From positions 11,369,950 through 11,433,949 of the forward strand of contig NC_134026.1 in assembly GCF_964204645.1 (NCBI RefSeq): a DNA stretch of 64,000 nucleotides. Direction: 5' to 3'. The notes beneath the pieces were generated by a model. It searched no databases. It saw only the letters and a list, made by a program, of their open reading frames with translations, and was not told where the DNA came from. Positions 3,730-54,449 of this stretch are shown one piece after another (positions within the stretch are counted from its first letter, which is position 1; each line of letters starts with the position of its first letter). This DNA comes from Tubulanus polymorphus. Taxonomy: Eukaryota; Animalia; Nemertea. The translations under genes were made by a program, and so were the position numbers.

Positions 3730-3739
3730 TTATTTTAGT

Positions 3740-6574: not shown

Positions 6575-6956
6575 AGTAATAGGGTTTAGTTGTTCTAGGT
6601 TAAAGGTTGAATGGTCGAGCTCATTAAAAACAAAATATTAAAAGTAATTTAAAACTATAATATATTTTCATAGCCGTGTGTATTTTAGTTAAATAATAGA
6701 ATAATTATTATTATTTGAATACATTTGATTATATGAATTTGTGTATTGTAAATAAATCAATTGGTCGCGGAGCGGAGCGGTAGCGAAGCGGAGCGACCAA
6801 TTTAAATTATTAATATCTAAGAATAAATGTTTAGTTATAATATAAAATACACACGGCTATGAAAATATATTATAGTTTTAAATTACTTTTAATAGTTTGT
6901 TTTTAATGAGCTCGACCGTTCGACCTTTGATCTAGAACAACTAAACCCCTATTACT
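6575..6956 (+). repeat. Terminal fold-back palindrome of element A
   Basis: Arms 6575-6687 and 6843-6956 are reverse complements except four G-T pairs, one A-G pair and a 1-nt bulge. Inner stem AATTGGTCGC/GCGACCAATT (6759-6802) encloses a GCGGA-repeat loop. Confidence 0.92.
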
Positions 6957-7015
6957 AATGTTTTTAAATCTTTTGTTATATTATTTGTCTTGATCTCCAG
7001 TACGTAGGCGTCCGT

Positions 7016-13370: not shown

Positions 13371-13930
13371 TTTTTAGCCCACTTGGGACTTTAGTCCCAG
13401 CGGGCTATTGCGTTCACTTTTCGTCCGTCGTCCATCCGTAGACGGAAATCAGTTATTTTAGGAAGTTTTGAAGACGCTTCAATGTAATGTCTTGATATTT
13501 GGGTTTCACATGTATCTACCCTAGACACATCTTCAGCTCAAAAACTGACCCTGTCAGAATCAAGATGGCCGACTGGCAGCCATTGTTGTTCGCCAAAATC
13601 AACACTTTTTACACATTTTTGAACTTTTTGAGGGAAATTTTGAAGATGCTTTGATCAATTACCTTGATCTTTCGGATATATGTGAATGCCCCTGGGCCCA
13701 TCAGCATAACAAAAATTGGGATACGGACTCAAGATGGCCGTCCTATGACCTTTTTTAGTGCCCAAAAATGTCAATTTTGGCCCGAATTCTGAGTTTGCCA
13801 TTTCTCATTGCAATTTGTGATGGGTATTCTTTGAAAAGGGATGTTTTATACCTTTGATACCTGTATTGTTAGATTGTTGAGCATTTGGAACCACTTCCCA
13901 AGTGGGCATGGTGTCCCTGGACCCCTAGTT
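13371..13930 (+). mobile_element. Second HINE/DINE-like family, nested, complete copy
   Basis: 5' TTTTAGCCCACTTGGGAC..GTCCCAG hairpin, CGTC-type microsatellite, 3' subTIR TCCCAAGTGGGC and stem-loop GTCCCTGGAC then CCCTAGTT; second copy at 58064-59213. Confidence 0.78.
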
Positions 13931-16896: not shown

Positions 16897-17177
16897 CAAA
16901 TATGAAAATAACAATAATTTCTACTTGAATTAGTCGCGTACACTACTAATTCAAGTAGAAATTTTTATTATTTTCATATTTGGAAAATTTCTCAACGATT
17001 CAACCTTTAACCTGAAAGCCCATTACCCCTATTACTCTTAAAATATTCATATACATGGATTAAATATATATGAATAACATATAAATTGATAGATTATTCA
17101 ATATAAAAGTGTGAGTAAAGTGTTAGTAAAAAGGTAACGAGTAATTAACGAGCTCTTATAGAATAGATAGATAGATA
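16897..17177. repeat. Left TIR of element B (truncated), including partial terminal hairpin 16897-16982
   Basis: Reverse complement of 41661-41930; loop CGCGTACACT at 16935-16944. Confidence 0.92.
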
Positions 17178-19364
17178 AACATTATTTCAATATTTATATT
17201 TGTATGATTTAGATTTTTAAACATTAAAAGTGTTAGTAAAGTGTGATTGAAATAATTCATATTTAAATCATTGAACTTCTAAAATCAATTTAAAAAAAAA
17301 AATTTAGTATTAAAATGGAAGCAAATAAGTACTACTGTTCAACATGTAATATCAATATAGATAAATCCCAAAAAGCAAGACACAATAAAACTAAAACACA
17401 TTTAGAGAATAAATTGAAATTAGAATATGAAGATGATATATTAGAAACTAAATTAGATGAATTAAAGAATGAAAAAGAAACAAACAAATGTGATACATGT
17501 AATCAATCATTCAGTGATAAAAGATATTATAAAGAACATTTAAAATCTAAAAATCATATTAGAAATAATATTTTAGGTGAGGATTATTTTGATAATGATA
17601 ACGATAAGAAACATAAGACAATTAAAAGAATAAGAAATAAATTAAACAATAAAAGACCATACATGGAAGATGTAAGAAATTATATTAATTCATTAGATAA
17701 TAAAAAAGGTATAGAGATAACCGAAGCATTTAAAAGTGATATTGGTCCAGCAGCTATCGAGTTTAAATTTCATAAAGGAAAAACATTAGAAGAAAATAAA
17801 AAACATTAAGAAAATATGAAAAATATTATAAAAATAATTACAGATGTTGAATACCCTAAAATTAGTATATCAGTTAAAGTAAAGTTTATAAAATCTGAAG
17901 ATAAACCAATATATAATATAAATTCTCATTCACAACATATTATTTCAAAACAACATATAGATGAAAAATTAGATAAATGTTATAATGAAGTAAAAACTAA
18001 AATAGAAGAGAAATATTTTGAAGGATCTGGTTTAATATTTGATGAAATAATATTTACGACTTTACATGTTTATAACACAAAATATAATAAGTTAACTAAA
18101 TCAAAACCAATTGATGAAAATAATTTATCATATTATAAAGAACCAGATATTGAAGCATCTAGTTATATTAAACTACCATTTAAAACTAATGCTGTAATAA
18201 ATGTACACAATTTTGATGATAAATGTTTTCTATGGACAATTATAAGTTGCTTACACCCAGTTGAAGATTATAATAAACATACTTACAGATTAACAAATTA
18301 TAAACAATTTGAAAATAATTATAAGATATATAATTATCCTGTTAGAATTAAAAATATCCCAAAAATAGAAAGAGATAATAATTTAAGAATAAATGTATTT
18401 GATTTAATCAAATTACCAAATACAAAAGGTAACAATATAAAACATTATACATTAGAACCTTTATACCTATCAAAAGATTATGATTCAAATGATGTTATAG
18501 ATATACTATATTATGAAAATCATTATATGTGGATTAAACAAATCGATTTATTTTTTTAAATCAGAAAATGATCACCATAAAATATATCTTTGTAGAAAAT
18601 GTTTACATAGATTCAGTAATGAAAGTACATTATTAAATCATAAACAATTATGTGAAAATCATGATTATTGTAAATTAGTTTTACCAAATGAAAAGGATAA
18701 AATATTAGAATTCAATAAATATGATTACAAAAATAAAGTACCATTTGTAATACATGGAGATTTTGAATCATTAAATAAAGAATTAACTGATCAAGATAGA
18801 AAAGAAATATATTATAAAAGAAAGAAATTAAATTCTAATGAAAATGATTTTTCAGATGAACCACCAAAAACAAATACAATTAAAAAGATTCATCAATCAG
18901 CTGCAGCTTTTGGATTATATATTAAATCTGATTATCAAGAACTAATTAAAAGTGAACATTATCATTATAGAAATGAAAATGTTATCAATCATTTTTGTGA
19001 CTTATAAATTGAATATGAAATAAAATTTAATGAAAAGTTAAATGAAAATATAGAAATTATAATGACAGAAGAAGATAAAGAAGCATTTGGGTTTGCAGAT
19101 AAATGTTATTATTGTGAAAAGATATTTAATTATAAAGATAAAAAAGTAAGAGACAATGATCATTTGAACGGAAAGTTTAGAGGCGCTGCACATGAGAATT
19201 GTAATTTACAAGCTAAGAAAATTAACTTTGTACCAGTTATATTTCATAATCTATCAGGATATGATGCACATTTATTTATCAAACAAGTTATGTCATAAAA
19301 TAGAAGAAATCAATAATGAAAGAGAAAGATTAAATTCAAATAGATCAAAAGATAAAATACCAAC

Positions 19365-19989
19365 TGTTGCCCACTGGCAACAGTTTTTCTTTCAGGTCTG
19401 TTAAGTTTGAGTGAATTTAGTTTAATATCTTTTTTGGTCTTTATTTTGCGTGCTTTATGTTAGTATGTTGTTGTTAGGTAGTATTGGTAAGCTGTTGGTA
19501 AGCTGTTTTGTGTGGTTTGAATTCATATTAATCTGGTATTATGTAGTGTTGGTGAGCTGTTTTGTGTGGTTTGAATTCATATAAACTGACATTGTGTAGT
19601 GTAGGTAAGCTGTTTCATGGGTGGTTTAATTTTCCTTTACGTTTGCTCTGTACAACTGTACTTCTGTGCATTCGCCACAGTATTCTGATAGAGGAAAGAC
19701 ATAGGCTCTCTACAACTAAAAAGAGTTGTAAGTTAAAATTATACATTTCTAAATGTCAACTATTTATTGCATTTATCGAGGCCTTTTTTTCTCCGTAATT
19801 TGAATTATTATTTATCACATTTTTAGGGTTTAATTGTGTATTTTTCAGTTAACCACTCGCTCGTGTTCACTGTGTATCTGTAACCTGTGCGTTTCACACA
19901 TTCGAGAATAAAGTGCGTTAGACCTTTTATGATTGTAGCCGTCTTGTCCTCGATTTGATAAGTTCTATGTCCAACTCTGGTTTGGGACA
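19365..19989 (+). repeat. 5' LTR
   Basis: TGTTGCCC...GGGACA; direct repeat of 25680-26297. Confidence 0.97.
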
Positions 19990-20072
19990 TATTGTTAAAA
20001 CTCTTTTTATTTAAATTTCATAACGTTGAAGCTATATAATTCTATCGCTCAAGCTCTTGAATTCCGTTAAGA

Positions 20073-21047
20073 ATGGCGCCAGAAGAGATAGCTGTAAAGG
20101 GCTCGGACCCTCCGAGCATTGATAAGATTTCTAAATCGCGTTCGTCGTTGGCTGGTTGGCTAACTAGGACCGTTGACAGTTGCAGAAGCCAAGTCCCGAC
20201 GCTGAACAGTAAAAGCGCAATACTATTGCTTAAAGACCGTTTAGTTACTGCATTTGAAAGGTTAAAACAAAAACACCAGCAGTATATTTCAGTAGCATCA
20301 GAATTGGACTTGGAGATTGCTGAGGCCGAGTTATGGTTCGAGCCATATAACTCGGCGGTTGTAAATTGTTTAGATTTAATTGACTCTAAAATTGACAGCA
20401 TCATCAGTGATTTCACATCTGTTACTTCCGTTAAGTCTGTTCTGGCGACCGGTCAACAAACTTCGTCTGTTCCCCTGGATGTTTCTTCAAGTGCCACCGT
20501 CAACCATGGTCAATCCGCCTACCAGGACGCAGCGATTCCCGGCGATACATCATCAGAGGCGATCGACGATTGGATCGACAAGCTTGTCATCGGACAGGAG
20601 ACTGTCGTGGACGTGCCTACATCGAGATCTTCAGATTCTAACGACGAGGAGATCTTCAAGGCGTTCACCAAACTGAGCTGTGACCGAGACCTACCAAAGG
20701 TCGTGTTCGATGGATCCGCTCTGATGTGGCCACGGTTCGTCGATCAGTTTTATGAACAAGTTCATTCAAGGTATGGTCTTGTAGATAGCAGGCGTATGGA
20801 CCTGTTACTCTCACATACTAAAGGTGAGGCAAGAAAGATGATCCAAGGCCTGGGGTATTCAGGCCGGAACTATGCCCAAGCTCTTCAGGAGCTCAAACAT
20901 GTCTTTGGTCATAAAGTGTTAGTCGCCCGTGCTTGCCTGAATAGTATAACTGGACCTGTTATACAGTCGACCCCTACGTCCATTCGAGATTTCTACGTGT
21001 CAGTTAGACTGTATTGCTGTGTTAAATCAACTAAAGCACACTTATGA
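20073..21047 (+). CDS. gag: BEL/Pao Gag N-terminal region (frameshifted into the next ORF)
   Basis: LPKVVFDGSALMWPRFVDQF...KGEARKMI...ELKHVFG, typical of the BEL gag (DUF1759-like) region. Confidence 0.85.
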   Translation: MAPEEIAVKGSDPPSIDKISKSRSSLAGWLTRTVDSCRSQVPTLNSKSAILLLKDRLVTAFERLKQKHQQYISVASELDLEIAEAELWFEPYNSAVVNCLDLIDSKIDSIISDFTSVTSVKSVLATGQQTSSVPLDVSSSATVNHGQSAYQDAAIPGDTSSEAIDDWIDKLVIGQETVVDVPTSRSSDSNDEEIFKAFTKLSCDRDLPKVVFDGSALMWPRFVDQFYEQVHSRYGLVDSRRMDLLLSHTKGEARKMIQGLGYSGRNYAQALQELKHVFGHKVLVARACLNSITGPVIQSTPTSIRDFYVSVRLYCCVKSTKAHL

Positions 21048-24000
21048 ACTCAATAGTTGTGAACTCTTACAAAAGGTTGCTAAACGTCTTCCCGTTGAGA
21101 AAAGAGGGAAGTGGAATGAGTATGTACGATCAATATCCTCACGAAATAGAGAGCCTAACCTGATTGATTTAGGCCAATGGTTAAAAGATAGGGTTGATGC
21201 CGACTGCGGCCCTTTTGCGGTTTACATCCCTCCCAAAGGCTCTCAAATCGTGTCTAATGTGAATAATTCCCCTAGATTATCTACTTGTATGTCGGCGCAT
21301 GGTGATCAAATTAAAAAGTGCCCACTGTGTCCAAATGAATATCACCATATTTCGAGGTGTCAGAAGTTTGTGGATAGAAATTTGTCCGATCGGTTTGCGC
21401 TTGTACGTTTACATAAACTCTGTATTAATTGTCTTTATGTAGGGCATGTGAAAGCTAATTGTCCATCAAAGGGCAACTGCCATGTTTGTAAGAGACGTCA
21501 TCACACCAGTATACATCGTGATGAACAGCGTCCGTCGGGTCCATCGTCAGGTTCGGGATTGCCTCATCACAGCCAGGTCATGTCAGCTGTACATCGCCAA
21601 ACAACAAAAGGTTCAGGTAACACTGTTGTTCATTTTCAGATTGTCCCTGTCATTGCCCATGGCTCCAATGGCCGCTGCATTGCCACCTTCGCATTGTTAG
21701 ACTCTGCTAGCGATGTAACACTAGTAGAATGTAATTTAGCTAAAGATCTGGGTCTGAAAGGGCAACCAGATCTCCTTAAAATGCGTACGCTTACGTCGAC
21801 CGAAACGAAACCTTCCGAAGTCGTCAGCTTCTCTTTGTCTAACCCAGTGTCTCCCGATTCTGCTAAATTAAATCTCCCAGAGGTGTGGACAAGACAAGGC
21901 ACCATTAGTTGTCCACCGCAGTCGTCTCGAATCTCCCAGCAGTATGATCATTTCCGGGATTTGACGCTAAGTGACATACATCCAGGTGATGTTAAAATTC
22001 TGATCGGTGGGGATGTCCCATTTGCTCATATACAGTTAGAAATTAGGCAAGGCGAAAGGCCGATGGATCCTATAGCAGTCCGCACTCACTTGGGCTGGTG
22101 TATTTTAGGTCCTGCAGTTAAAGGGTCTCGTAATGAACCGAGGTTCGGTTTTAAAACGACAACCATCGAGACTCATGGTACTGATTTCCTGTTGGACAAG
22201 CAGATTGAGAAATTTTGGGAGACCGAAACGTTCGGCGGCGCTGACCTCTTCGATGATGTCAAAAAATCGCGCTCTGTAGAAGATCATCGTGGATTGGAGA
22301 TCTTAGATAAATCCTGCTGTTTAGTCGACGGACACTATCAGGTCGGTATGCTTTGGCGGGACATGGAGTCATTCATGCCCAATAATCGATTTCAGGCCGA
22401 AATTCGTTTCAAAAATCTCAAGAAACGATTAAATAAGGACCCACAATTAATGGCTCTTTATTGCAAAACCGTGAATGGTTACATAGAAAAGGGCCATGCT
22501 AGGAAAGTGAGTAATGAAGAGTTAAAATCCCTTAGTAAAAGAGCATGGTTTCTTCCTCACCACGGTGTAGTTAACCCCAATAAATCCGGCAAGGTCAGGG
22601 TAGTGTTTGACGCTGCAGCTCTTTACCTCGGTGTGTCATTAAATAATCAATTAATGACTGGGCCAGATTTATTAAATAGTCTGTTTGGAGTTTTGCAGCG
22701 GTTTCGTTTAGGAGCTGTTGCCATTGCAGCTGATGTGGAAGGCATGTTCCACCAAGTGAAAGATCCGGAGACTGATTCAAACTCCCTTTTGTTTTTGTGG
22801 CAAGAAGATTTAGCCGCTGATGGAGAGCCAGAAGTCTATAAAATGACAGTACATATTTTCGGCGCAGCGGATTCCCCGTGTGCTGCTAATTATTGTCTTA
22901 AACGCTCAGCAACTGATACTGCTTTGCTTTTCAGTGAGGCTGCCGTACAGACTATAATACGAGATTTTTATGTGGATGATATGTTGAAATCTGTGTCTTT
23001 TCCGTTACAGGCCATCGAACTAGCAGAGGAAGTAACGAAAATTCTGGCTCGTGGTGGTTTCCACCTCACTAAATGGATGGGTAACAACCGTGAAGTACTG
23101 GCGCAGATTTCGAAAGATGAGAGAGCCCGTCCTGAATTAGACTTAGATCTCGACGAGATGCCCGTTGAGAGAGCACTCGGCGTGAAATGGGTTGTCGAAT
23201 CTGATTCCTTCTTGTTCAGGCCAGCTGTTAGAGGGGGAATCCCGACGAAGCGTCTTGTCGTCAGTACGGTTAGTTCCATTTTCGATCCGTGTGGTTTTGT
23301 GGCTCCATATACTTTCAGGGCAAAGTTTCTTATACAGGAGATATGGAGACAGAACTTCGATTGGGATACTGCATTACATGGTGATGTTCTCACACGCTGG
23401 CAGGAAATGGATAAGTGAGCTACATTTTTTAGTCGACTTCAGACTAAATCGGCATCATGTAGATTTGTATGTTGGAAGCACTAAAGTAGAACTCCACGTA
23501 TTTTGTGATGCTTCTGAGGCTGGCTTTGCTGCTGTTGCATATCTCCGAATGAAGCGTCCATCAGGTGAATTTGTGTGTTCGTTTTTGGCGTCAAAGACTA
23601 AGGTGGCTCCTCTTAAGATGTTAACTGTTCCAAAATTGGAGCTCGAGGGAGCCGTTCTCGCTGTCATGCTGTCTAGCTCGCTTAAACATGAGTTGAAGAT
23701 GTTAGAATTTGAGCGCACCTGTTACTGGACTGATGCGGTTTCTGTCCTGAGATATATAAATAACATGTCAACACGCTTCAAAACATTCGTCGCCAATCGA
23801 CTGACGAAAATTCACCGTTCTACCAACGCTCAACAATGGATGCATGTGCCATCAGATCAGAATGCCGCTGATGCTGCTACAAGGGGTTTACCTGCAGCTG
23901 GGATCGATAAGCACCCCATGTGGCTACATGGCCCTCAGTTCCTGAGATTTCATGAGTCCGAATGGCCAGATCAGACTATTGTTCATGGTCCAGTACTATA

Positions 24001-25580
24001 TCCTTTAAATGTAAAAGTGTTCTCTGAATAAAACAAATGTTGCCGTTAGTAAAAATGAAAATTCTGTTGCTGATTCTAGCTTTTTTGAATTTAGTCGTAT
24101 TTCGGATTGTACAGATGTCCATCGATTCTCATCATGGTTCAAGCTACGGCGGCATGTAGCCTGGATTCTACGTGCGGTGAGAAAATTCTCATCAGTCATA
24201 GCCCGTTTGAAAGTCGGCCGAGGCCGGGAAGGTCGCCTTCTATTTCGATCAGAGATAACTGAAGCTCAGACTTCCTTGATCAAATCCTCCCAAGATAGGG
24301 CATATAGGGATGAGATTGAAGCCCTTGAGTGTGGAGAAAATATGTCCAAAAGAAGTCCCTTGCTCCCGTTACGTCCTTTTTATCACCGAGGTGTCCTGAG
24401 AGTCGGCGGTCGTTTGACAAACGCAGTGATACCATATGAGGCTAAGCATCGGGTTATATTGCCCTTTGGTGACCATATTACGCGCCTTATTGTTGCTGAT
24501 GTACACGAATCTCTTTATCATGCTGGGCCGGAACGTAATTTCTGAGGTCAGGCAAAACTTTTGGCCCGTAAAGGCCCGTAGCTTGGTGCAAAGCGTAATT
24601 GGTAAGTGTTCAGTTTGCCGTCTCAGTAGAATCAACCCATCGGTCCCTATTATGGCTGATTTGCCATCGGCCCGTGTTGCTGGTTTTACCCGTCCTTTTA
24701 CTTATACAGGTATCGATTACTTTCGTCCCGTGTTCGTAAAGCTTGGTAGAAGCACAGTTAAAAGATGGTGCTGTTTGTTTACGTGCCTCGTAACCAGGGC
24801 TATTCACTTGGAAGTTGCGGATAACCTGGAAACTGATGCGTTCATTTTAGTCTTGCGTAATTTCATAGGCCGAAGGGGTCCGCCATCCGAAATTTACAGT
24901 GATAGCGGAACTAACTTCGTGGGCGCTGATCGCGAACTTCGCGAGGCATTAGAACGGCTTAATCAAGTGCAAGTCCATAATTGCCTACTCAAACGCGGCA
25001 TTGTATGGCATTTTTCTCCTCCGTCAGCCCCTCATTTCGGCGGGGCTTGGGAACGGTTAGTGAAATCGTCGAAACGGGTATTGAAACAGATTCTTAAGGG
25101 GCAGCTGGTTATCGATTCCGTATTACGAACTGCGTTAATAGAAACGGAGTCCGTCATCAATAGTAGGCCATTAACATACAACAGTACCGATCCAAACGAC
25201 TTCACCGCCATTACTCCAAATCATTTCTTGCACGGCGGTCCAAAAACGATTAATGCACCTGATATATTCGAACCAAAAGAAATTTGCCGTCGCAAAAGGT
25301 GGCGGCAAAGACAGGTCATCGCCGACCATATTTGGCGCCGGTGGACACGCGAGTATCTACCGGTAAGTGGCAGTGCGACGGGCTTGGTGTCGGGGTCAAT
25401 GACCTGGTCATTCTTGTGAATAACGATGTTCCTAGGGGTAAATGGGAATTTGCTAGGGTCGTGAACGTCTGTGCCGGGCCTGACGGACGTATAAGGGTGG
25501 TAAAGGTAAAAACCCAAAGTGGTTCTGTGCTTACCCGTCCAGTCAGTAAAGTGGCTGTGCTGGAGGAGTCTGTGTGTTAG
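21019..25580 (+). pseudogene. pol: BEL/Pao Gag zinc knuckles, protease, RT, RNase H and integrase (several frameshifts and stops)
   Basis: Triple Cys-His knuckles, LLDSAS protease, FYVDDM RT, VFCDASE RNase H, GIDYF / SDSGTNF / GAWERL integrase. Confidence 0.95.
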
Positions 25581-25679
25581 ATTTGGCTTGTTTGTATACG
25601 AGATGTTGTGTGTGTTACTAATACATGTTGATGATAGTATATTGTGTTGACGCTCTATGTGACGTCAAAGGGGGTGGCA

Positions 25680-26297
25680 TGTTGCCCACTGGCAACAGTT
25701 TTTCTTTCAGGTCTGTTAAGTTTCAGTGAATTTAGTTTATTATCTTTTTTGGTCTTTATTTTGCGTGCTTTATGTTAGTATGTTGTTGTTAGGTAGTATT
25801 GGTAAGCTGTTGGTAAGCTGTTTTGTGTGGTTTGAATTCATATTAATCTGGTATTATGTAGTGTTGGTGAGCTGTTTTGTGTGGTTTGAATTCATATAAA
25901 CTGACATTGTATAGTGTAGGTAAGCTGTTTCATGGGTGGTTTAATTTTCCTTTACGTTTGCTCTGTACAACTGTACTTCTGTGCATTCGCCACAGTATTC
26001 TGATAGAGGAAAGATATAGGCTCTCTACAACTAAAAAGAGTTGTAAGTTAAAATTATACATTTCTAAATATTTATTGCATTTATCGAGGCCTTTTTTTCT
26101 CCGTAATTTGAATTATTATTTATCAAATTTTTAGGGTTTAATTGTGTATTTTTCAGTTAACCACTCGCTCGTGTTCACTGTGTATCTGTAACCTGTGCGT
26201 TTCACACATTCGAGAATAAAGTGCGTTAGACCTTTTATGATTGTAGCCGTCTTGTCCTCGATTTGATAAGTTCTATGTCCAACTCTGGTTTGGGACA
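25680..26297 (+). repeat. 3' LTR
   Basis: Matches the 5' LTR apart from about five substitutions and a 7-bp indel counted by eye. Confidence 0.97.
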
Positions 26298-28248
26298 CCA
26301 ACTTATAAATTTAAAATGTTAGCTAGAACATCTGAGAATTATATATCATTCCAATTTGGTTGCCTAACATTTATAGATTCATATAGATTTTTAAATAGTT
26401 CATTAGATAACTTATCAAAATCATTAGTTGATGATGAATTAAGAATATTAAAGCAACACTACCCAAATAATGATGATTTTCAATTAATCAGATATAAAGG
26501 AGCAATTCCATATTCATTTTATAAAAATCATAATGATTTTAACATAACTGATAAATAGAATAATAGAACATTGAGTATTTGGAATCATTTTGGAATGAAA
26601 AATCATGGGCAATTAGTAGATTTATATTTAAAATCAGATGTATTATTATTAACTGATATATTTGAAAGGTTTAGAGATGTAAACCTAAAATATTTTAATA
26701 TTGATCCTTGTCATTGTTATTTCTAGCCCAGGTTTAACATGGGATTGTGGATTAAAATTTACAGATATAAAAATGGATTTGTTAACAAATATAGATCAAT
26801 TACTATTATTTGAAAAATCTATAAGAGGAGGAGTTTCAGGTGTATTAGGGGATAGATATTTCAATATAAATGATAACCCTGGATATCATTTATTATACAT
26901 AGATGCAAATAATTTGTATGGTTGGGCAATGATGGAACCACAACCTCATGGAGTATTTGAAATAAGTGAAGTTTTACAACATGAAAATAATGACAAATTT
27001 GATTGGAAGAAAAGAATCCTAGATATTGCAGATGATTCAGATATTGGTTACTTCTTTGTTGTTGGTTTAGAATATCCTGAAGATTAAAAATTTAAATCTA
27101 GAAATCTAGCTTACTGTCCCGAACATAAAACTGTAACGCATGAAGAATTATCAAATTATCAAAAAAGAATTAAACCCGAAAATCATATTCATACAGAAAA
27201 GTTAATGGTAACTCAAGAAGATAAATATAATTATGTAGTACAATATAGAATGTTGAAGTTTTATTTGAATCAAGGAATGATTCTAAAAAAGTACATAGAT
27301 ATATTTCATTTAGTCAATCTAAATGGTTAGAAAAATATATAGATTTTAACACCAAACAGAGAACTGAAGCTAAAACTGATTTTGAGAAAGATTTCTTCAA
27401 GTTAATGAATAATGCATTCTATGGTAAGACTTGTGAAAATATTAGAAATAGAAATGATATTGAGTTAGTTAGTAATGGTAAAAGAATTAGGCATTTAAAA
27501 ACATATCTTAAATTTATTGGTAACAGAATATTTGATGAAAATTAAGCTGCAGTTAAAGTGAGAACTTCTATGAAATTTAATAAACCAATTTATGTTGGTG
27601 CTTCAGTTTTAGAATTATCAAAGTATTAATGTATGAATTCTATTATAATGTATTACAACCTCATTTTGGAGAAAAACATATAGAAATCTTATATTTTGAT
27701 ACCGACAGTTACATATTAAAGATAAAAACTAATAACATAACAGATGATTTAAAAACATTAAAATCAGTAATTATCCTAAAAATCATGAATTGTTTAGCAA
27801 TGATAATAAAAAAGTTCCAGGGAAGTTTAAGGATGAATTAGGTGGTGAAGAAATGATAGAGTTCATAGGTATTAGATCTAAAATGTATTCATATAAAACT
27901 AAAGAACATGAAGCTAAAAAGTTAAAAGGAATAACCAAAAGTGTAGTAGAAAAGAATATTAATTTCAAAGATTACATCAATTGTATATTCAATGAAGAAG
28001 TTAGAAAACATAAGATGAGATGTTTAAGATCTGAAGATCATGAGATGTTTATTGAAAAAAATTGAAAAGGTTAGTTTGAATCCATTTGATGATAAAAGAT
28101 ATATTTTAGATGATGGAATTCATACAGTTGCATATGGTTGTAATTTAGATAAATATCTAAAGTTCAAAAGAGAAGAAACAAAAGAGAACGAGATAATGAA
28201 AAGAATTCTAACGTGTTAATCAAATTTTAATAAAAATATGTATTATAA

Positions 28249-33952: not shown

Positions 33953-35072
33953 ATGAGTGGGAGTTATAACAATCCTTCTAAGAATCATAGAATATCTAAT
34001 GCTATTAAAGCAGAAAGATCACATCATATAATTACTCATAACCCTTCTAATATTAATCCTGATGAAACTTTATATGTTAGAATTCCTCGATTAACACAAA
34101 ATACTTTTTATGTTCCAAATAGTATTTATTTTTCGGCCGATATAAAAGTAACCGGTAATAATAATAATCATGTTGTCGATAATGTTGGAAGATATTTGAT
34201 TAAAAAATTAACTATAAAGATTGGTCCAGAAACAGTTTTCTCATAATAAATAGAAATGATATTGAGTTAGTTAGTAATGGTAAAAGAATTGCAAATATAA
34301 AATTCCATTAGACTTTGAATTGATAAATAACAATGCGCCTTTATATAAATACGCAATTCAAGAAGACGTTATATTCGAAATAACATTTGCGCCTGTTAAT
34401 GAAATTGTAATATCTAGCGTTAATAAAGATATGGGTTATAAATTATCGAATATATGTTTAGAATATGATACAGTAACTGATGAAAATATTTCAAGTATAA
34501 TTCAAACTCAATACAATCAAGGATTTTCATTATTATATGATTATATTGATAAATTTAAAACTGTAACTATTAATGCAAATGATGAAATTATTAATGAGAA
34601 TATTAACTTCCCAAGAAGATCTATTAAAGGTATATTAATATTTTTTACCATTGCAACATATACTTATGGCGCAATAAATGTTGATAATTATTATAATCCT
34701 GAAATAACAAAAGAAGAAATAACTATCGAAGGAATAGCAAATAAAATATTTTGTCAAGGAATGAGAATGATAGATCAATGGCCAGAAATTAGAAAACATT
34801 TTATGAATGAAAAAGTGAAATCATCTGAAAATTGTAATATTAATCAAATTGATTATTATACCGGTAATAAATACGCACTATGGTTAGATTTTAGAACAAC
34901 AGAGGATAATTCATTACATGGTTCTGGAAAAAAACTACAGAACACTAGAGATGGAATACAATTATTCATGACAAAGAAAAAAGGAAGCTTAAATTTCAAT
35001 ATGCACATTTATATTATATCTGACGCGCAATTAAATATTGTAAATTCTCAATTAAATAGTGTTATGTATTAG
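33953..35072 (+). pseudogene. Major capsid protein (double jelly-roll), disrupted at 34240-34290
   Basis: THNPSNINPDETLYVRIP, VDNVGRYLIKKL, LSNICLEYD, PRRSIKGIL, LWLDFR motifs; position within the Maverick gene set; second copy at 1-454. Confidence 0.8.
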
Positions 35073-35848: not shown

Positions 35849-36398
35849 GGGTCTGATAGTGAAAGTGATTAAGATAATTATTATATTTAACTCAAATAAT
35901 AATATTAGTTGAAAATTGTATAAAATAATAGTAAATAAAAAAGGGGGTTTTAAGTATTTAAGGTATTTAAGGTATCTAATACATATCTAATACATATCTA
36001 ATATATATTATTTGAAAATACCTTAAATTATATATTTTTTTAAAATTTATATTGAAACCTTAGTAATAATAAATAACCTTTATTATTTTCAAACTTCATA
36101 TATTAGTTGAAAAATAAAAATAAATTGGTTGAAAATTGTATAAATAATATTTATTTTAAAAAAGGGGTTTTAAGTATTAAGGTATCTAATACAGAGGTAG
36201 GTATTAGGGTATATAATAGGGTATCTAATACATAGGTATATTTTAAACATATTTCAATATTTATATTTGTATGAGTTAGATTTTTAAACATTAAAAGTGT
36301 TAGTGAAGTTTTATTGAAATAATTCATATATATATACATGAATAACATATAAATGAATAACTTCTAAAATCAATTTAGTAATAAAATATGTATAATAA

Positions 36399-37053
36399 AT
36401 GGAACCAGAACAACCACAAACTATCAATATTACAAATAACACTGGTGTCATAAATATATACTACAAGAAGTGTTCTAAATGTGAATTAGATAAATTAGCT
36501 ATAACAGAATTTAATAAGCGTAAGATTAGCAAAGATGGTTTTCAATATTGCTGTAAAACTTGTACTAAACTATATACCAAACAATATCGAGAAGATAATA
36601 GGGAAGCTTATAATGATTATAAGACAGAATATACGAGAGAAAGATATAAAACAGATCTTAATTTTAGATTGAAACAATGCTTAAGATATAGATTAACACA
36701 ATTATTCAACAAAGAAACACATTCAGAAACATTATCTAATTTGTTGGGTTTGTACAGATGAATTTCTCAAATCATGGATTATATTTCAATTCGACTATAA
36801 AATGAACATAGATAATTATGGGAATTATTACCATATTGATCATGTGTTACCGATAGCTAAATTTAACATGAATGATGAAAACAATGAAAAACTTATTTGG
36901 AATAGGAAAAATTTAGGACCTTTAGAAAAGAAGGAAAACATAATTAAATCTAACAAACTAGATATGAAATTATATTTAGATCAACTGGATAAAGCAAAGA
37001 CATTTGTTGAATTATGGAACTCAACACATAATGAAAAATACGTTGAAGCTTAA
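36399..37053 (+). pseudogene. HNH / endonuclease VII-like nuclease, copy 1 (frameshift near 36750)
   Basis: CSKC..CKTC, YHIDHVLP, NLGPLEKKEN. Confidence 0.82.
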
Positions 37054-37973
37054 GCGCTTAGAAAACCGGTTACTCTCGATCTATGTCAAACTGCCTATAT
37101 GTAATTGTATTAGGTTGTTTACAAAAACATCTGTGCCGCATTTTATATTCAGTTGAATGGGGCGCGCCTCATTTGAATATGTGCTATTTCAGTTGAAAAG
37201 GATTAATCAATTGCATTACAAAGGAACATCTGTTGCTTGGACAATGTTTAGCTAGTGAATAACTGGCAGTTATAAGCGCGCATAAGCATAGGAACGCATA
37301 GGATATTCTCTCTATAAACACAATTTTAGGAGTTTACAGTTATAAATGTAAGTACTGTTTTTGTTGTTATTAAGGCGTTGGGAAACGTTAAACATGTAAA
37401 ACTTACCCTGGTAAGATGCGCCACAAATGGCCATGTTTAAATGCTGTAATTAATATTTTACAACTACAACTTCAAGTTAGTTTTATTCTACGCTAGATAT
37501 TTATCTTTTAGATAACAAATGAAGACCATTAAATCAAGAAAGTGAAGATAGGAGGATGTGGAATCAGAAATAATGGATATTTCAACTCATGAGACTGTAG
37601 CCGTTTAGCCATACTGTATAGGCTTCCAATGCATTACGTTTGTCGGAATTTCAATTGCGTCATTAAGCTGTTGTTAATGACACACAGTGACAAGTGTTGT
37701 ATTGTACTTTATTGATTCCTGCATTCCACGCATACCTTACCGCTCCTCTCAGGAGCGGCTTGGAATGTGGAAATCGGTAATGATTGTAGAATAAAATATA
37801 TGTGTGTTTATGAAATAGTATTTCCACCAGTTTCTATGAATTTATTTTCAGTTTGAGGATTTATTATCAAGGATCCGAAATGACTTATCTGGACAGTTAT
37901 AATTACTGCTCCTAATAGATAAACAATAGTAGTGAGATATTAAATCCTAATTTAAATACAAAGTGTATTATAA

Positions 37974-38761
37974 ATGGAGGAACAATCACAAGCTATAAAT
38001 ATAAACAATAATATTGGTGTTGTAAATATATATATCAGAAGACATGTTGCAAATGTAAAAAAAGTAAACCATTTACAGAATATTATAATCATAAAACTAA
38101 GAAAGATGGTAAACAAACATATTGCAAAAGCTGTATTAAACTATATAATAAAAAATTTCTTGAAAATAATCCAAATTATTCAACAGAATATTATATGGAT
38201 AATATTGAAAAATTCAAAGTTAAAAATAAAAAATGGAGAGAAAATCATCGAGATTATAAAACAGAATATATGAGAGAATGGAGGGATAATAATCGTGAAC
38301 ATTATACAGAATATATGAATAATTATCAAAAAGAAAGGCGCCAAACAGATTTTAATTTTAAATTGAAAAAATATCTAAGTTCTAGATTATCAAATTTATT
38401 CAGTAAAGATAGACACTCATACACACTAACAAATTTATTGGATTGTTCAGATGAATTTCTCAAATCATGGATTACATTTCAGTTCAATGATGAAATGAAT
38501 ATTAATAATTATGGAGATTATTTTCATATTGATCACGTTTTACCAATATCTAAATTTGACATGAATGATGAATATGATAAAAAGTTAATTTGGAATTGGA
38601 AGAATCTAAGGCCCCTCGAAAAGAAAGAAAATATGATTAAACATGACAAACTAGATTTACCGTTATATTTAGAACAGTTAACAAAGGCAAAGAAATTCAT
38701 TGAATTATGGAACAATGATCCAAATAATGAACAATATGTTGAATCGTTATTGAGTGGATAA
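37974..38761 (+). pseudogene. HNH / endonuclease VII-like nuclease, copy 2 (frameshift near 38030)
   Basis: FHIDHVLP...WNWKNLRPLEKKENMIKHDK; N-terminal zinc ribbon in the shifted frame. Confidence 0.82.
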
Positions 38762-38998
38762 AGATTAATATATCTCAAATAAAATATAATAAAAATTACA
38801 TAACTTCAACTAGCTAGTGAATTCTATTATATTTTTAATATTTTCTTTTGGTAATTCTAATTGACACTAGATTGAATAGATTTGAATAGAAATTCTTTAA
38901 CTTTAACTAACCTAGTCAATTTAGTATTAACCCAAAGAGATACTAGTATCATTTTATAATACTTATAATATTTTTCTTATTAAATTTCTCTGATATAA

Positions 38999-39585
38999 AT
39001 GTCAAAGAAATCGAGTAAGAATAGTATTGATATTGAAAAAACGTTAGATGATTTGGGTATAAGTGATAATAAAGATACAGTTGTTTCTAATTCTATTCAC
39101 GTTAATAACAATATTGATTATGAATACTACTTATATTGTAAACACCATCTTGAGTTACTAATTGCTGGCGGGAAATCTAAAGAGTTTTTAACTAAGACTA
39201 TTACTTTTCAAGAATTAGATTAGATGAAACCAGATAAAGTAATAAAATATTTTAAGATTTATGAAGAAGCTAGATTAGCTAGAATAAATGATTCTATTTC
39301 AGATGGTATTGTCAAATGTTATTCTAAGTTATGTAACCGGTTAATACCAATTGATGAAAATAAATTATATAGTGATTTGAAAAATGACTACTTAGTTATG
39401 ACTGAATTACAAAATGGGTTGGTTATGCTTCATTTCAATTAGGATCGGTTATGACATTAATTTCTACTGGTGTCATAACATTTTCGAATATCAAACCTAT
39501 GGAATATAAATCAGGTAAGAACGAAACAGATGACGCTGTACTACAACCAAACGGTGAAACAGAAAATGAAAGAGAACAAAAATTA
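38999..39585 (+). pseudogene. Uncharacterised Maverick protein (stop at 39221, frameshift)
   Basis: Homologue of 3740-4330. Confidence 0.7.
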
Positions 39586-39595
39586 ACTAAAATAA

Positions 39596-39955
39596 ATGAG
39601 TGATGGCGTTAAGAAAAAGGATAGATCCGAGAAACAAATTAAATGGGCAAGAGAATTAGGTAAAAGATCTTCAGAATTAAAAAAAGCTAAGAAAAAGAAA
39701 TTAACTGATATAAATGAATCACAGAAATTATCTGATATTGATTCAAATAACAATCCATCTAATTCTTCTAATGCTGGAAGTAATAATTACTCATATATTA
39801 CAATTGGATTAGTAACGGTTATTATATTCTCTGGTGTAATATATAAATCAAAATTCAAATCTGATGATAAAGATGATTCCAATGATGATAAACCAGAAAA
39901 TAAGTCAAATCATAAAGTCATTGAAACTAAATCTAAATTATTATTAATGGATTAA
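39596..39955 (+). CDS. Small basic single-TM protein
   Basis: Homologue of 3400-3729. Confidence 0.72.
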   Translation: MSDGVKKKDRSEKQIKWARELGKRSSELKKAKKKKLTDINESQKLSDIDSNNNPSNSSNAGSNNYSYITIGLVTVIIFSGVIYKSKFKSDDKDDSNDDKPENKSNHKVIETKSKLLLMD

Positions 39956-39961
39956 AATAAG

Positions 39962-41051
39962 ATGAAAAAAGAACAATATTTAAGAGATTTATATTATAAC
40001 CCGGAAAGTGAAGTATCATATTCTAGCGTTTCAGAATTATGGGATAAAATTAAATCTGATAAAGAAAATGGTAATATAAAATATAGTGAATTAAAATCAT
40101 GGCTACAAAATCAACCAACATATCAAATCCACAAGAAAATGGATGAAATTTTTAACAAGAAAAGTTATGGTTTCATATATCGATCAACAATGGCAAGCAG
40201 ATTTAATTGACATGAAGAACTTAGAGGAATACAACAAAGGATATTTATGGATACTGAATGTTATAGACATATTCAGTAGACACGCATGGAGTATACCAAT
40301 CAAAAGTAAAACTGGTATAGAAGTGACAAATGCTTTTAAATCAATATTTAAAGAAGCTATTCCAGATAAGATACAATTTGATGAAGGTAAGGAATTTTAT
40401 AACAAACATTTTTAAAAACTATTATCTGATAACGATGTAGATTATTTTTCAACACATTCAGATAAAAAAGCATCTATTATAGAAAGATTTAATAAAACAT
40501 TGAAAACTAGAATGTGGAAATATTTTACTGCTAATGAAACATATAAATATATCGATGTGTTAGATGATTTAGTGAAAGGTTATAATAATTCTAAACATAG
40601 TTCTATAAATATGAAACCTATACAAGCTAGAAAAGAAGATAATTCGGAAATAGTTTGGAATAATTTATATGGAGCATTTGTTACACATGATTTTGGAGAA
40701 CCTAAATTTAAAATTGGACAACACGTTAGAATATCTAAATATAGAAAAACATTTTATAAAGGTTATACCCCTAATTTTACAGCAGAAATATTCAAGATTA
40801 AAAAGATAATATTAACTAAACCATTTGTTTATAAACTAGAAGATCTAAAAGATGAAGAAATATTAGGTTATTTCTATGAACAAGAATTATCACTTGTACC
40901 AAATCCAGATGAAATAGAATACAAAATAGAAAAAGTATTGAAAACAAAAACTCTTAAAGGAAAAAAGTATTCTTTGGTGAAATATAAAGGATATGATGAT
41001 AAATTTAATGAATGGATTTTATCTAGTAAAATTAAAAGAATAAATGAATAA
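39962..41051 (+). pseudogene. RVE integrase with chromodomain (element B)
   Basis: Same DDE and chromodomain motifs as 2263-3354; frameshift near 40145 and stop near 40413. Confidence 0.92.
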
Positions 41052-41651
41052 AGATTTATTTATATTTGAACCGCATAATATGTTAGTTACTGGAGTAACC
41101 AATTGTGGTAAAACACATTTCATATTAAACTTGTTAGAAACTATAAGAATCATTTTGATAATATAATATTATTCTGTCCTACTTATGAAATGAATAAAAC
41201 ATATAATAGAGATATAGTTAGGATAAAAAAGTTTATTATATTAGATCCTAAAACAGTAAAAGAAAATTTAGATAATTGTATTAAAATAGCAATTGATACT
41301 TATAAAGGATCAAATACATTATTCATTATAGATGATTTCGCTAATTTACATGATTCAAAAGTGAGAGAAAGTGAGTTATGTTATTTAGCTTTTTCTGGGA
41401 GACATTTTGGGATAACAACATGGGTTTTAAATCAAAAATATAATTCAATTGTTAAAGACTTTAGGGAGAATATAAGATTTCTAGTTTTATTCTATAACAA
41501 AGATAGAAAATCTATGCAACAATCATTGGAAGAAAATCAAATTATACCTACTGAATTACATGATGAATATATGAATAAATTAAAGAATAATAAAGGTTCA
41601 AAATTATTACTGAGACTACAATTTCCATATGAATATAAATTTATAAAATAA
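41044..41651 (+). pseudogene. Packaging ATPase (element B), 4-nt deletion near 41143
   Basis: GVTNCGKT Walker A, LFIIDD, GRH; homologue of 1659-2270. Confidence 0.9.
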
Positions 41652-41660
41652 CTATTTATA

Positions 41661-41984
41661 TATCTATCTATCTATTCTATAAGAGCTCGTTAATTACTCG
41701 TTACTTTTTTACTAACACTTTTATATTGAATAATCTATCAATTTATATGTTATTCATATATATTTTATCCATGTATATGAATATTTTAAGAGTAATAGGG
41801 GTAATGGGCTTTCAGGTTAAAGGTTGAACGGTTGAGAAATTTTCTAAATATGAAAATAATAATAATTTCTACTTGAATTAGGAGTGTACGCGACTAATTC
41901 AAGTAGAAATTATTGTTATTTTCATATTTGGAAAATTTCTCGACCGTTTGACCTTTGGCCTGAAAGCCCATTACCCCTATTACT
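41661..41984. repeat. Right TIR of element B including complete terminal hairpin 41791-41984
   Basis: 91-bp arms (41791-41881 / 41894-41984), 12-nt loop, seven mismatches, all G-T on the + strand. Confidence 0.94.
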
Positions 41985-43110: not shown

Positions 43111-43959
43111 TTTTCAAATTAATGGGATGAACCATTATTGCAATACAAACTGATGCAGTGTAAAACTGTCTTGAATACAAAGCAAACTAGTCTAGTACCT
43201 AGCCGTTGTTCCTCAAACAACGTCTTGGGCGAAAGTGCTCATAAGGTAAATTTTCGTCCCTCATTTTGAGGGACGAGGCTATGAGCGTCTATTTCACCCC
43301 TTAAAACACCACCAACTTACCTCAAACTGACTGTTCTGTAATCATATGGAAGTTAACTATTGTTTGTGCATAAATTTTTAATGCTAAGTAGCTTTTGACG
43401 ATCGTAGTAGCTCAAAACGTTTGACTTGTCGCCTCAAAAAACAGTTGAAGTGAAGCAACATAACAAATATGGCGGCTTTTCGCGGTGCATGATGGGAGTG
43501 TAAATTACGGATTCGAACTTAAACTTGGACTGCGTCGATGCCAATGCAGATATTATTGTTGTTTCAAATTATTAAAGTAGTTCTAGAATTTGTTAACGTA
43601 AACATTATTTTCTGACAACCTTATATTATTGATATATTATGGTGGCAAAAATAAAATCAAACAATTTTTTGCGAAATCGGCATTTTATTAGAGTCAATTT
43701 TAAAAATACCGCCGGTGAGTCACGTGATGAGATGACGTTAGAGGTTGGCAACACGAACCCGGAAGTAAATGAAATGCGTTTGTTTCTCGGCGTTATTTTT
43801 TCGAGTTTACGATGGTAAAAAAATGTGTCGCGTACGGGTGTGCTAACACACATAAGGATGGTGTATCTTTACACACATTTCCGCATCCAGTAAAGGATGA
43901 GCAGCGATACAAAGACTGGATTAGGCAAGTGAATCGTACACGTCATGACTAGCCGGGAT

Positions 43960-46273
43960 CGCCGTCGATGAATTCATTAAATGGCCGGCAGTCGACGATT
44001 TGAATGACCTGAAGAGAGGCTTTTTTGATCTGGCCGGATTTCCGAACGTTGTTGGTGCCGTCGACTGTATGCACATTCGCATTCAGGCTCCAACAGAAAA
44101 TGAGCCAGCTTTCGTCAACAGAAAGAGCTTTCATAGCATCAATGTTCAGGCAATATGTGATCATAAAGGTAAAATATATTCCCAGTTAATGTTTTGTTTC
44201 TCCCGTAATTCATATATTTCCGGGTACTTGCGACTAGATGCAGCAAGCGACAGTTTTATCTCAGTCTTAGCATTACAGTAGAAGGCGCTACTATACAGTC
44301 CCTAATCTTCCCCGCTTCAATACTGGTCCGAATCCCAAGATAGGTCTACCATCATGAAGCATACTGATCCACAGCTGAATTGTACTTTCAAAAAGATCAA
44401 ACGATTTATATACGTAGGTTTCTTGGCATGTCCTGGGAGAACACACGCATTGTTCCTTATGTACGATAATACATTATCCGCCTTAATGGTTGTTTGTCTG
44501 AAACATTTATACTTGTATCAGACGAGCATTCTAAATCACTTTGAAGGTAATCACGGCGCTGTAGTCATGAGAAGAATTCGTGGAAATGAGCAATTATGAA
44601 ATCAACTTATGAAACACTCGCTGACCCTTAGTCTGATAATTCGATAATAAGGAGTAATATTAAAGAGTAATATTAAAAAGTAATATTAAAGAGTTTTATT
44701 ATTTTAATTAATAAGTGTTTGTGTGTTTAAATTTGAATGTACTAATAATGATAAAGAATATAATTAAGAAAGATGATATTTCGGCTTACATTGTATATTA
44801 CTATTTAGACAAAATTAAATACCATTCATTGTGGGAATTGTAATCATTGGATAAGTTAAAATAAATGAGTTCGAGGGTTGGAAAAATAGTATATATGTAA
44901 TCTCTTCGGTGCGGTTGAGAAGGAGAGCAGACCGGCAGGTATCATGACGTCGAGGGTCGGGTTAAAGTTAGCAGCGAATGAAAAGTCTAGGAATCAGGAC
45001 CCCAGCTCTGCGTCGTGGTGCTGCGTTGGTTGCTCGTTCCCTTTTACGGCTGGCCGCAAGCAGGGTTCTGGATTTTTCTTGGGTGTGGACGCAGCCGTAT
45101 AAAAGGGGCCGCACCTCGAGAGAGAGCGGACTCTTTTAGAAAGCATTTTCAGGGGAAGCATTAGAAGACTATAGAACAGATAACTTTCGGCTATACGGTT
45201 GAATTGCATCTTCTTGTGTGCGGGATTTGTAACAAAATTCTAAATTAAAAGGTAGGGAATTTTATAAATTGTTGAGACTATAGTTCAGTTAAAATTGTAG
45301 AATTAAAGTTGAGTATTATCATATTTAAATCCGGAGTTCCTTTTATTCCTTGGTTTTCGGGTTTCTGTGTTCGTGGTCGACTTTCTCGCCAGGGACCGGA
45401 GTTTGTAATATAGGAAAAAGACAATAGAGAAAGGGACCGCGGAACAATATCCTACTTATGTTTGTGTCAAACTTAACCCTCAGTCATTATACGTAAAAAA
45501 TGTCTATTAGCAGGCCTATTGATCACGCTGTTTTTCTTCTTTCTAGCAAGATTCACTCATGATAGTCATATATTCCGATCATCTCCAGTCAGCAGGTATG
45601 AATGTCTCCGTCTCACTTGAACTATGTGTTCGCCCTCCCTTGTTTCTGTAATTTATGAACTATAAAAATAACCTTTTCATAGATATCAATTCTTGCATAT
45701 TCTAAAGTGTTACGTTATTGGAAAAACCAGAAGGAAAATAATTTTCTCATGAGTCGAAATCTAAGAAAAAGTCCATTTGACTGAGAATTGCTATCAGTCA
45801 TTGGAATCTTTTCTTATTGAAGCTTAGAACCATTCACCATCTATAACTCACAACTTGATTTAGAAATGGCTGATTTCTTCTTTCCTAGATATTTGGAAGC
45901 ACATCCAGAATATGATGGCATCGTTTTAGGAGATAGTGGATATGCGTGCCGGAGGTTTCTGCTTACTCCGTTTTTACATCCGCGCTCAAGGGCAGAAAGA
46001 AGGTACAATGTCTCTCATAAAAGTACCAGAAGCATCATAGAAAGGGCTTTTGGAATCTTTAAACGCCGATTCCACATTCTACACGGAGAGATAAGAATGA
46101 TACCCGGACGTGTCTGTAAGATCGTTTTGTGCTGTGCCATACTACACAACATAGCTATACAGTTGGATGAACCAGAGCCCGCAGATGTCGTCGACGAAAT
46201 GGAGTTTGATGACGTCTTTGCACCACTAAATGTTGATGGCGTGGCATTCAGTGCCAGGCATTTCAATGACTAA
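43960..46273 (+). pseudogene. Harbinger (HARBI1-like) DDE transposase, spliced, N-terminus missing
   Basis: [55 protein letters not shown]. Confidence 0.9.
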
Positions 46274-53090: not shown

Positions 53091-54037
53091 GGCATACACA
53101 GTAATCCAACATATACCTGACCGAGTAAATTTCCAAATCGACCTTAACGCGCTGTTCGACCAAAATACTTAATGTTCCAACAAGAAAATCTTGTTCGAAA
53201 GAAAATAATTCTGTTTGATAGAACAATACGCTTTTTGCTTGAACCAAAAATTTTCTTCATTCTGACAAAAAATGTGTTCGAATAAAAAGCTATGTTATTG
53301 TTGAAATGAAAAAAATTTGGTTGAGCGAAAACAATTTTTTTCGAACAAATGTTTGAATGAAAACAATTCTGTTCGATTGAACGAAATACTTAATACTTTC
53401 GGTTCGGAGAAAAAACTTTTTTCAATATACTTGTTCGAACGAAAAACTTAATGTTCTGACAAGAAAATTCTGTTCAAATTAAAACGATTTTGTTCAATTG
53501 AATGATTGTTCGAACGAAAAACCTTTCGTTTGGACAAAAAAAAGTTTGTTCAACTTTGTTCTAACGATTTTTTCAAATTGGTTCAATTGTATAGAATATT
53601 ATTGGTTCTTGTGACACGATGCGATCCTCGCGTTGCATCGCAAGTTTCGATGCAAGTCGCTTGCAATACGATTGTGTGCGACTAGTTTCTGCCAGTCGCA
53701 AGAGCGCGTCGGTTGGTTGTGACAGTCGTGTCGCGTCGCAGAAAGTAGAACACCTACGACTCCATGTGACTGGCGTTGCTGAAAGATGAGGACGCCAGTG
53801 ATATGACGACTGAGTTTCAAGTCGTCAAAACGTCACGATATGTCGACATATTCATGTCGAATTGATGCGATATATCGACATAAATATGGCGACTTGTCGA
53901 GTTGGAACGCAACAACTCGAGGCCCTTTATCGCTTCCGTAGATCTTTCATTAAGTAGGATCACTTGAATGATCGCTTTAATATCATTTAAAAAAAAAAAG
54001 AATCTGCCAAAATGACCTTAATATTCGACACTATATC

Positions 54038-54449
54038 TACGGAAGCGATAAGGGGCCTCGGAGATGACGCGTTCCAACTCGACAAGTCGCCATATTATTG
54101 TCGACATACCGCGATGTATCGCGTCAAGTCGACATGAATATGTCGATATATCGTGATGTTTTGACGACATATTTCGTTTTCTTAACCATTTTCCTCGCGA
54201 CAAGTCGACATATTCATGACGACTTGAAACTCAGTCGTCATATTACTGGCGTCCTCATCTTACATTTAGACATGTCTTCAAATGACGGCTTGTCCCGTGG
54301 AAAATGAGCAAATAAGCGAAATTTGTCGTGAAAACGTCACGATATGTAGACATATTCATGTGGACACGATATATCGCGATATATCGACATAAATATGGCG
54401 ACTTGTCGAGTTTGAACATGAAAACTCGAGGCCCTTTATCGCTTCCGTA
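54038..54449. mobile_element. MITE with TACGGAAGCG termini and 7-bp TSD
   Basis: TACGGAAGCGATAAGGGGCCTCG / CGAGGCCCTTTATCGCTTCCGTA; CTATATC on both sides; partial copy 53786-53940. Confidence 0.8.

Follow-up and report, generated by a model that had tools for sequence, protein, structure and literature searches.

The closest described relatives of the element reported here are the animal Polintons, or Mavericks. Like them, it combines a protein-primed polymerase (pPolB) carrying terminal-protein (TP) and vOTU domains with an rve integrase, an A32 ATPase, a likely capsid gene and TIRs with AG...CT ends. It differs in that TIRs of its type end in a flush fold-back of 104-382 nt with polarised wobble pairs. 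No such ends are described in the available text of a vertebrate Maverick survey, in which the words hairpin and palindrome are absent (PMC8097293), of the adintovirus paper, in which the word hairpin is absent (PMC8502044), or of PMC12220804, PMC11296320 and PMC6431247. In the literature covered, which took in few subscription journals or Repbase reports and treated preprints without their supplements, we found no description of hairpin ends in animal Polintons. For the exit of a Polinton from the chromosome and the restart of its replication without an end-bound protein, the accessible literature offers models only. A conserved, strand-polarised, flush hairpin provides a defined natural substrate, and the question becomes testable since protein priming and self-priming predict opposite outcomes on it. 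Annotation of TIRs and short-read assembly may conceal such ends elsewhere.

Terminal palindromes have been described in endogenous virophages of Halocafeteria seosinensis and in one PLV subtype, and hairpin priming was proposed for them (bioRxiv 10.64898/2026.07.28.741278). Like the hairpin studied here, these palindromes lie at the extremity of the TIR and adjoin the integration boundary. According to the available text of the preprint, from which the word mismatch is absent, they measure 52 nt in the figured subtype, belong to elements of a protist and occur preferentially with non-pPolB replicases. In contrast, the hairpins reported here are longer, are found in animal-type Polintons that keep a TP-bearing pPolB, and come with data on polarity and covariation. 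The idea of hairpin priming is therefore already in print for protist elements; what is new is the polarity, the covariation, the absence of flip-flop and the coexistence with TP priming. Evidence of polarity and covariation for such ends was not found in the literature covered (few subscription journals).

Among systems outside this group, the telomeres of Streptomyces are the nearest case in which terminal-protein priming is combined with a folded 3′ single strand. As far as the consulted part of that paper goes, however, they are bacterial, belong to replicons with an internal origin, comprise a number of short palindromes containing G·A pairs and use a dedicated protein, Tap (PMC4513846). 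The panhandles of adenovirus and PRD1 also let a single strand remake a duplex end for protein-primed initiation, but there, in the account available to us, the two ends of the genome pair across its whole length (PMC11886824), whereas in the present case pairing is local, with the inverted copy no more than 200-400 nt away. The 3′ hairpins of parvoviruses share the flush 3′ fold-back with mismatches, and minute virus of mice (MVM) keeps one orientation, judging from the consulted part of PMC1185569. In contrast to parvoviruses, the present element has no Rep/NS1 match among the scanned ORFs, carries a TP-bearing polymerase and an integrase, and exhibits no AAV-type flip-flop in its integrated copies. 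Flip-flop loops like those of the closed telomeres of poxviruses and N15 are not found; integrated copies contain the complete hairpin, arms and loop alike, always in a single orientation.

The element and its terminal hairpin

The window (the whole 64,000-nt stretch of Tubulanus polymorphus DNA that was analysed) contains an element that extends from a truncated left TIR at 16897 to position 41984 and measures ~18 kb without an inserted retrotransposon. The element is a Polinton/Maverick. Its TIRs have 5′-AG...CT-3′ short-repeat ends, a type of end motif described in the consulted part of PMC8097293, and it carries a broken PolB gene, an rve integrase, a chromodomain, an A32 ATPase and a likely capsid gene. 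All of the following features lie on the + strand. The PolB gene is interrupted by a Pao/BEL LTR retrotransposon (19365-26297; 625-bp LTRs, 98% alike), and its catalytic region survives as frameshifted pieces at 26689-28062. The likely major capsid protein, in two pieces at 33953-35069, is a candidate by its feature match to NCLDV-type capsid clusters (feature score 0.97, with recognition below threshold and no Pfam match). Two free-standing HNH-like nuclease ORFs at 36399-38758 were identified from a motif read by eye, without a Pfam match. A piece of a retrovirus-type integrase lies at 40095-40412, and a piece of the A32-type packaging ATPase at 41112-41651 points into the hairpin. Among the scanned ORFs of this decayed element (sets of 20 and 50), neither a maturation protease nor an HUH/Rep nickase gave a Pfam match, the latter being weak as an absence.

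The hairpin, H1, is the last 194 nt of the Polinton (41791-41984, + strand). It consists of an inner arm, which is an inverted copy of the element end, at 41791-41881, a 12-nt loop at 41882-41893 and an outer arm at 41894-41984, giving arms of 91 bp; 41984 is the final base of the element, beyond which reads diverge. The adjoining 41626-41790 (+) is the non-hairpin, sub-terminal portion of the right TIR. An earlier reading of this DNA, made from the sequence only, had reported a 91-bp stem whose seven mismatches were all G-T on the strand ending 3′, and recomputation reproduced it: 7/7 mismatches are G·T on the + (3′-ending) strand, six of them T(inner)·G(outer) and one G(inner)·T(outer) (two-sided sign test, p = 0.016). 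With DNA parameters the folding energy is -86.9 kcal/mol for the + strand and -78.5 kcal/mol for the - strand, compared with a mean of -13.6 kcal/mol for shuffled H1 sequences (z ~ -28). The difference between the strands is ~8 kcal/mol with DNA parameters versus 27-29 kcal/mol with RNA parameters. The 3′-terminal base forms a flush pair with the base that opens the inner arm, and the element sequence runs on past that pair. The inner arm contains 20 G and 6 C.

The left TIR of the same element (16897-17206, - strand) is truncated, the hairpin having lost its outer 54 nt there, so that only two of the seven H1 pairs can be read there on both arms. The counterpart of 41860/41915 is again G·T, and that of 41845/41930 is Watson-Crick. 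The loops of the left and right TIRs share one orientation. It had been proposed that six inner-arm variants predate insertion because they recur in the left TIR. Six inner-arm bases of H1 do agree with the left TIR, but only five of the seven G·T pairs are common in the family, so that five rather than six can be taken to predate insertion. The other two are nearly private: at 41826/41949 the deviant base sits on the outer arm and is found in ~1% of reads, and at 41845/41930 the base of this copy at 41845 is found in ~9%. In the non-hairpin TIR, left and right differ at five isolated places, each of another kind, with no polarity in this small sample.

Variation of the hairpin across the family

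Family-wide evidence came from 150-nt reads of an independent DNA run, X5, which sample integrated copies. Depth was ~2,000 at the outer arm compared with ~8 in the flank, corresponding to roughly 250 ends, and 1,096 reads go past 41984 into unrelated flanks (agreement 0.34). Position 41984 is the true element end in many copies. These depths and diverging reads rule out an assembly artefact.

At a share of at least 6% of reads, 50 places were variable; 40 of the 50 were examined and the remaining rows were taken as invariant. Pooled read shares add up to ~4.7 G·T per hairpin against at most 1.0 A·C, the A·C sum being an upper estimate with the 10 remaining variable places treated as invariant. 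These shares are rough, as the arms are unequally sampled (inner ~1,240, outer ~1,900) and subfamilies are mixed. Five pairs have G·T in 49-100% of reads, and A·C does not exceed 23% at any pair. T·G was found in 77% of reads at 41817/41958, 75% at 41818/41957, 57% at 41860/41915, 49% at 41829/41946 and 31% at 41833/41942; at 41825/41950, also T·G, neither base is among the listed variable places. Pairs with an inner G account for 27% at 41815/41960 and 22% at 41816/41959. Possible A·C was seen in 9-23% of reads at six pairs. Counted by site the bias is weaker, with some G·T at 12 pairs compared with possible A·C at 6. A comparison of G-T with A-C across the family, which the sequence-only reading had suggested as a check, thus gave a strong excess of G·T but not an absolute bias. 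Paired, compensatory transversions were found at 41872/41903, 41849/41926, 41869/41906, 41815/41960 and 41852/41923, indicating that the arms change together.

A flipped isomer would carry outer-arm bases at both 41817 and 41825, and at least one of these is below 6% of reads. Ten T-to-C places exceed 6%, and neither position is among the nine that were examined; all six G-to-A places were examined and none falls in the loop. Flip-flop isomers were therefore not seen among integrated copies in 150-nt reads, and the co-oriented TIR loops likewise show that polarity is fixed. The suggestion of a resolvable telomere, for which flip-flop isomers were to be sought, is accordingly not supported. Joints and loose ends in the X5 reads also revealed several terminus subfamilies that have the first ~45 bp of the stem in common and differ in stem length and loop.

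A second terminus and distant Polintons

A second fold-back terminus, H2, belongs to a related element in the same window (6575-6956, + strand) and has arms of ~113 bp around a structured 155-nt loop. This hairpin, too, is flush. Its stem contains 4 G·T, 0 A·C, 1 A·G and 1 indel, and two of its G·T sites lie elsewhere than those of H1. H2 and H1 have common sub-terminal sequence but different stems. The genes adjoining H2 point away from the element end, and the polarity is the same as in H1. Within the H2 loop, 6765-6800 forms a short GC-rich stem with GAGCG repeats, and similar repeats are present in the loop of a distant Polinton locus, L094; we take them to be reminiscent of parvovirus Rep-binding arrays.

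A profile of the PolB N-terminus found 31 loci. Four of them have a flush fold-back upstream of PolB that starts at a known Polinton end motif (L094, 125 nt; L100, 142 nt; L101, 129 nt; L102, 104 nt), with element boundaries defined by that motif alone and L094 possibly chimeric. Their PolB pieces are ~30% identical to that of the window. The ratio of G·T to A·C on the 3′-ending strand is 3:0 in L101, 2:0 in L102, 1:1 in L100 and 0:0 in L094 (plus a possible terminal G·T). In an inverted repeat of L100 that served as a control, the two kinds are balanced (2 G·T, 2 A·C). In each of the four termini, folding favours the 3′-ending strand, by 0.9-8.9 kcal/mol. When H1 and H2, which are related to each other, are included, six termini with three end motifs are all flush, and the 3′-ending strand folds better in 6/6 by 0.9-10.4 kcal/mol. 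In each the 3′ base takes part in a flush pair and has template ahead of it, the last pair of L094 being G·T.

L107 has an apparent end with the end motif and no flush hairpin, which indicates that the structure is dispensable in this polymerase class. No hairpin was found in the non-coding DNA upstream of PolB in L092 and L093, and in most of the other loci among the 31 the upstream part is too short or is occupied by other genes. A scan with full-length PolB gave 24 loci. Nine of them (L126-L134), which matched weakly and through the nuclease alone, were excluded, and L084 was already covered; the other 14, viral loci of which two came from contigs already sampled, yielded no new flush terminal hairpin. 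An ATPase-based search of viral contigs gave no relative, and the best 80 of 87 ATPase-based metagenome loci, none of which was seen to reach an element end, had no terminal hairpin. Searches by DNA motif matched 0/80 loci and no viral contig. The flush hairpin is thus widespread in this polymerase class without being universal, and the G·T bias is clear in some lineages only.

Some of these loci have further features. The apparent end of L107 (172-600) is packed with a short repeat resembling a motif of the window stem. Upstream of PolB in L114, divergent genes flank a 184-nt hairpin (4657-4840) in which the order of the Polinton end motif is reversed; it may represent either a junction or the insertion of a small element. 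At 9470-9522 of L094 the Polinton end adjoins bacterial carbamoyl-phosphate synthase genes, which is probably an assembly chimera.

The polymerase and its associated domains

One PolB piece matches PF03175 below the cut-off (E 3.8e-5), the gene being broken in this copy. Full-length relatives at 68-75% identity identify it as a protein-primed PolB. The N-terminal piece (17810-18556, + strand) carries a TP-like domain with S73 and a vOTU domain with C139 and H238. This ORF has 20 longer relatives, and the three residues are invariant in 21/21 aligned sequences. In the predicted structure (pLDDT 82), S73 lies in a loop ahead of the last strand of the first domain. That domain aligns with the little fingers of Y-family polymerases at Z 5.0-5.8 (best match Z 5.8, rmsd 2.5, 79 aligned), values that unrelated alpha/beta folds also reach. 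The second domain aligns with viral OTU proteases (Z 7.8, rmsd 3.7, 110 aligned); Foldseek alone gave only weak OTU matches. A TP and vOTU layout has been reported for polinton pPolB in the available part of PMC11071308. Judging from these alignments and the structure model, PolB keeps TP and vOTU domains and still looks protein-primed. The hairpin end had been set against replication by protein priming, a contrast that finds no support in a polymerase retaining these domains. Their retention and the lack of flip-flop argue against hairpin resolution of the parvovirus or poxvirus type.

An endonuclease VII-like domain lies within the broken PolB gene (19008-19295, + strand; E 2.5e-4, below the curated cut-off), and the corresponding region is a domain within PolB in 6/6 full-length relatives scanned. 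The motif is also present in PolBs of loci in which no hairpin was found, and such inserts have been interpreted as homing-endonuclease invasions (PMC11071308, available part). Nucleases of this type had been put forward as candidate resolvases; nothing ties the domain to the hairpin.

A proposed local panhandle at the element end

The original proposal was that the hairpin is selected as a strand-specific, single-stranded structure of DNA or RNA. The divergent second hairpin, the compensatory changes, the high G·T shares at five pairs, with A·C at or below 23% throughout, and the flush hairpins of distant Polintons all bear this out, with the reservation that the bias is not absolute. An end of the H1 type is family-wide and under selection as a single-stranded fold.

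We tentatively favour, at somewhat less than an even chance, the view that H1 is a built-in mini-panhandle that rebuilds the protein-priming origin on a displaced or excised single strand. The 3′ end of such a strand would snap back into a local fold, and the folded end would be a duplex copy of the terminal origin, with the same sequence as the normal terminus. The TP-primed polymerase would then start opposite the paired 3′ end, push off the inner arm and copy through the loop. Because copying through the loop would invert nothing, polarity would stay fixed and a resolvase would be unnecessary. Since only the 3′-ending strand would have to fold, G·T wobbles would be tolerated there and A·C purged. 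The near-fixed wobbles at 41817, 41818 and 41825 might weaken the inner arm as an end signal in duplex DNA. We infer both the folding of the single-stranded intermediate and the priming on the folded end; re-initiation from a long-range panhandle is itself a standing, still unproven model for displaced strands of adenovirus and PRD1 (PMC11886824, in the part available). The local panhandle is favoured because it explains the flush registration, the polarity, the co-changing arms, the lack of flip-flop and the retained TP with the fewest extra steps. It must, however, let protein priming outcompete the flush 3′-OH, which is a ready primer.

That ready primer is the basis of the main rival, a self-priming hairpin, in which extension of the paired 3′-OH makes the second strand and produces a turnaround or head-to-head dimer. 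An asymmetric cut at the outer arm would then follow, the arms being distinguished by their G·T differences. The 3′ base is suitably paired, with template ahead, in all six termini, and the element contains nuclease genes and domains. Asymmetric resolution with a single orientation retained is known from the left end of MVM, where a bubble tells the arms apart (PMC1185569), and the same model was put forward for the protist virophage and PLV palindromes (bioRxiv 10.64898/2026.07.28.741278), in the portions of both papers available to us. We nevertheless regard self-priming as unlikely: TP and vOTU domains are retained, the scanned ORFs gave no HUH/Rep Pfam match (weak as an absence), the endonuclease VII-like domain recurs at loci in which no hairpin was found and belongs to a kind of insert interpreted as homing-endonuclease invasion (PMC11071308, available part), and dimers and a cutter, both unseen, would be required. 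The mini-panhandle and self-priming are compatible, and occasional self-priming would yield mirror-image genomes. It is equally doubtful that this widespread class of animal Polintons uses a hybrid cycle of TP priming and parvovirus-like self-priming from the 3′ fold-back, in which the G·T pairs would be an asymmetry mark letting an element nuclease cut only the true end. If true, such a cycle would explain both the first replication round of an integrated, protein-free Polinton after excision and the origin of mirror-image satellite elements.

The remaining readings do not involve priming. A transcript running to the genome end could fold with G·U pairs and serve as a terminator, decoy or small-RNA precursor, as the larger strand difference with RNA parameters and the ATPase gene pointing into H1 would allow. 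An RNA role is nonetheless quite improbable, since the genes next to H2 point away while polarity is unchanged, an RNA would not require registration with the last DNA base, and Rfam matches only generic hairpins below the gathering score. Nor do we consider it probable that the fold is a protective cap or protein platform on the 3′ single strand, the wobbles mainly blocking cruciform extrusion of the duplex palindrome. Avoidance of cruciforms predicts mismatches but not polarity, and the wide variation of stem length and loop (104-382 nt) is easier to reconcile with a simple duplex than with a shaped binding site; on the other side, H2 and L094 have structured, GC-rich loops, and in Streptomyces replicons terminal proteins occur together with folded 3′ overhangs to which Tap binds (PMC4513846, available part). 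Least probable, and very much so, is a neutral by-product in which fold-back accidents duplicate ends and strand-biased mutation (C to T and A to G on the 3′-ending strand) supplies the wobbles. Accidental annealing is given as an alternative in the accessible text of bioRxiv 10.64898/2026.07.28.741278, and C to T on the 3′-ending strand accounts for each of the two near-private changes of H1. But the five isolated differences in the non-hairpin TIR, a small sample, lack polarity, the control repeat of L100 is evenly divided, and an inner arm with 20 G and 6 C that drifts to AT should yield more A·C than G·T. Several T·G pairs lie at CpG sites, and decay of methylated CpG was considered as a cause of polarity and rejected, as the process is strand-symmetric and the host is not CpG-depleted (observed/expected 1.25). 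Simple deamination of the displaced strand was rejected as well, since it would be expected to give the opposite polarity.

Other features of the window

The integrase-chromodomain-ATPase module lies at 36228-41674, flanked by an internal copy of the sub-terminal TIR sequence (36228-36368, + strand) and by the right TIR; the neighbouring element carries it in inverted orientation (1636-6455). Contigs in three runs have an alternative junction at 41671, and related loci have both gene orientations; the module may be an invertible segment. Positions 1-16896 hold nested Polintons, with the element ending at 6956 placed inside the PolB of an older, divergent minus-strand copy (~6956-15400). A candidate third hairpin at 15769-15816 was a weak match that does not fold (z 0.76) and was discarded. 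The right flank contains a fragment of a Harbinger-type DDE transposase at 43949-44278, and host inverted repeats, several with G·T mismatches, are clustered at 53783-54449.
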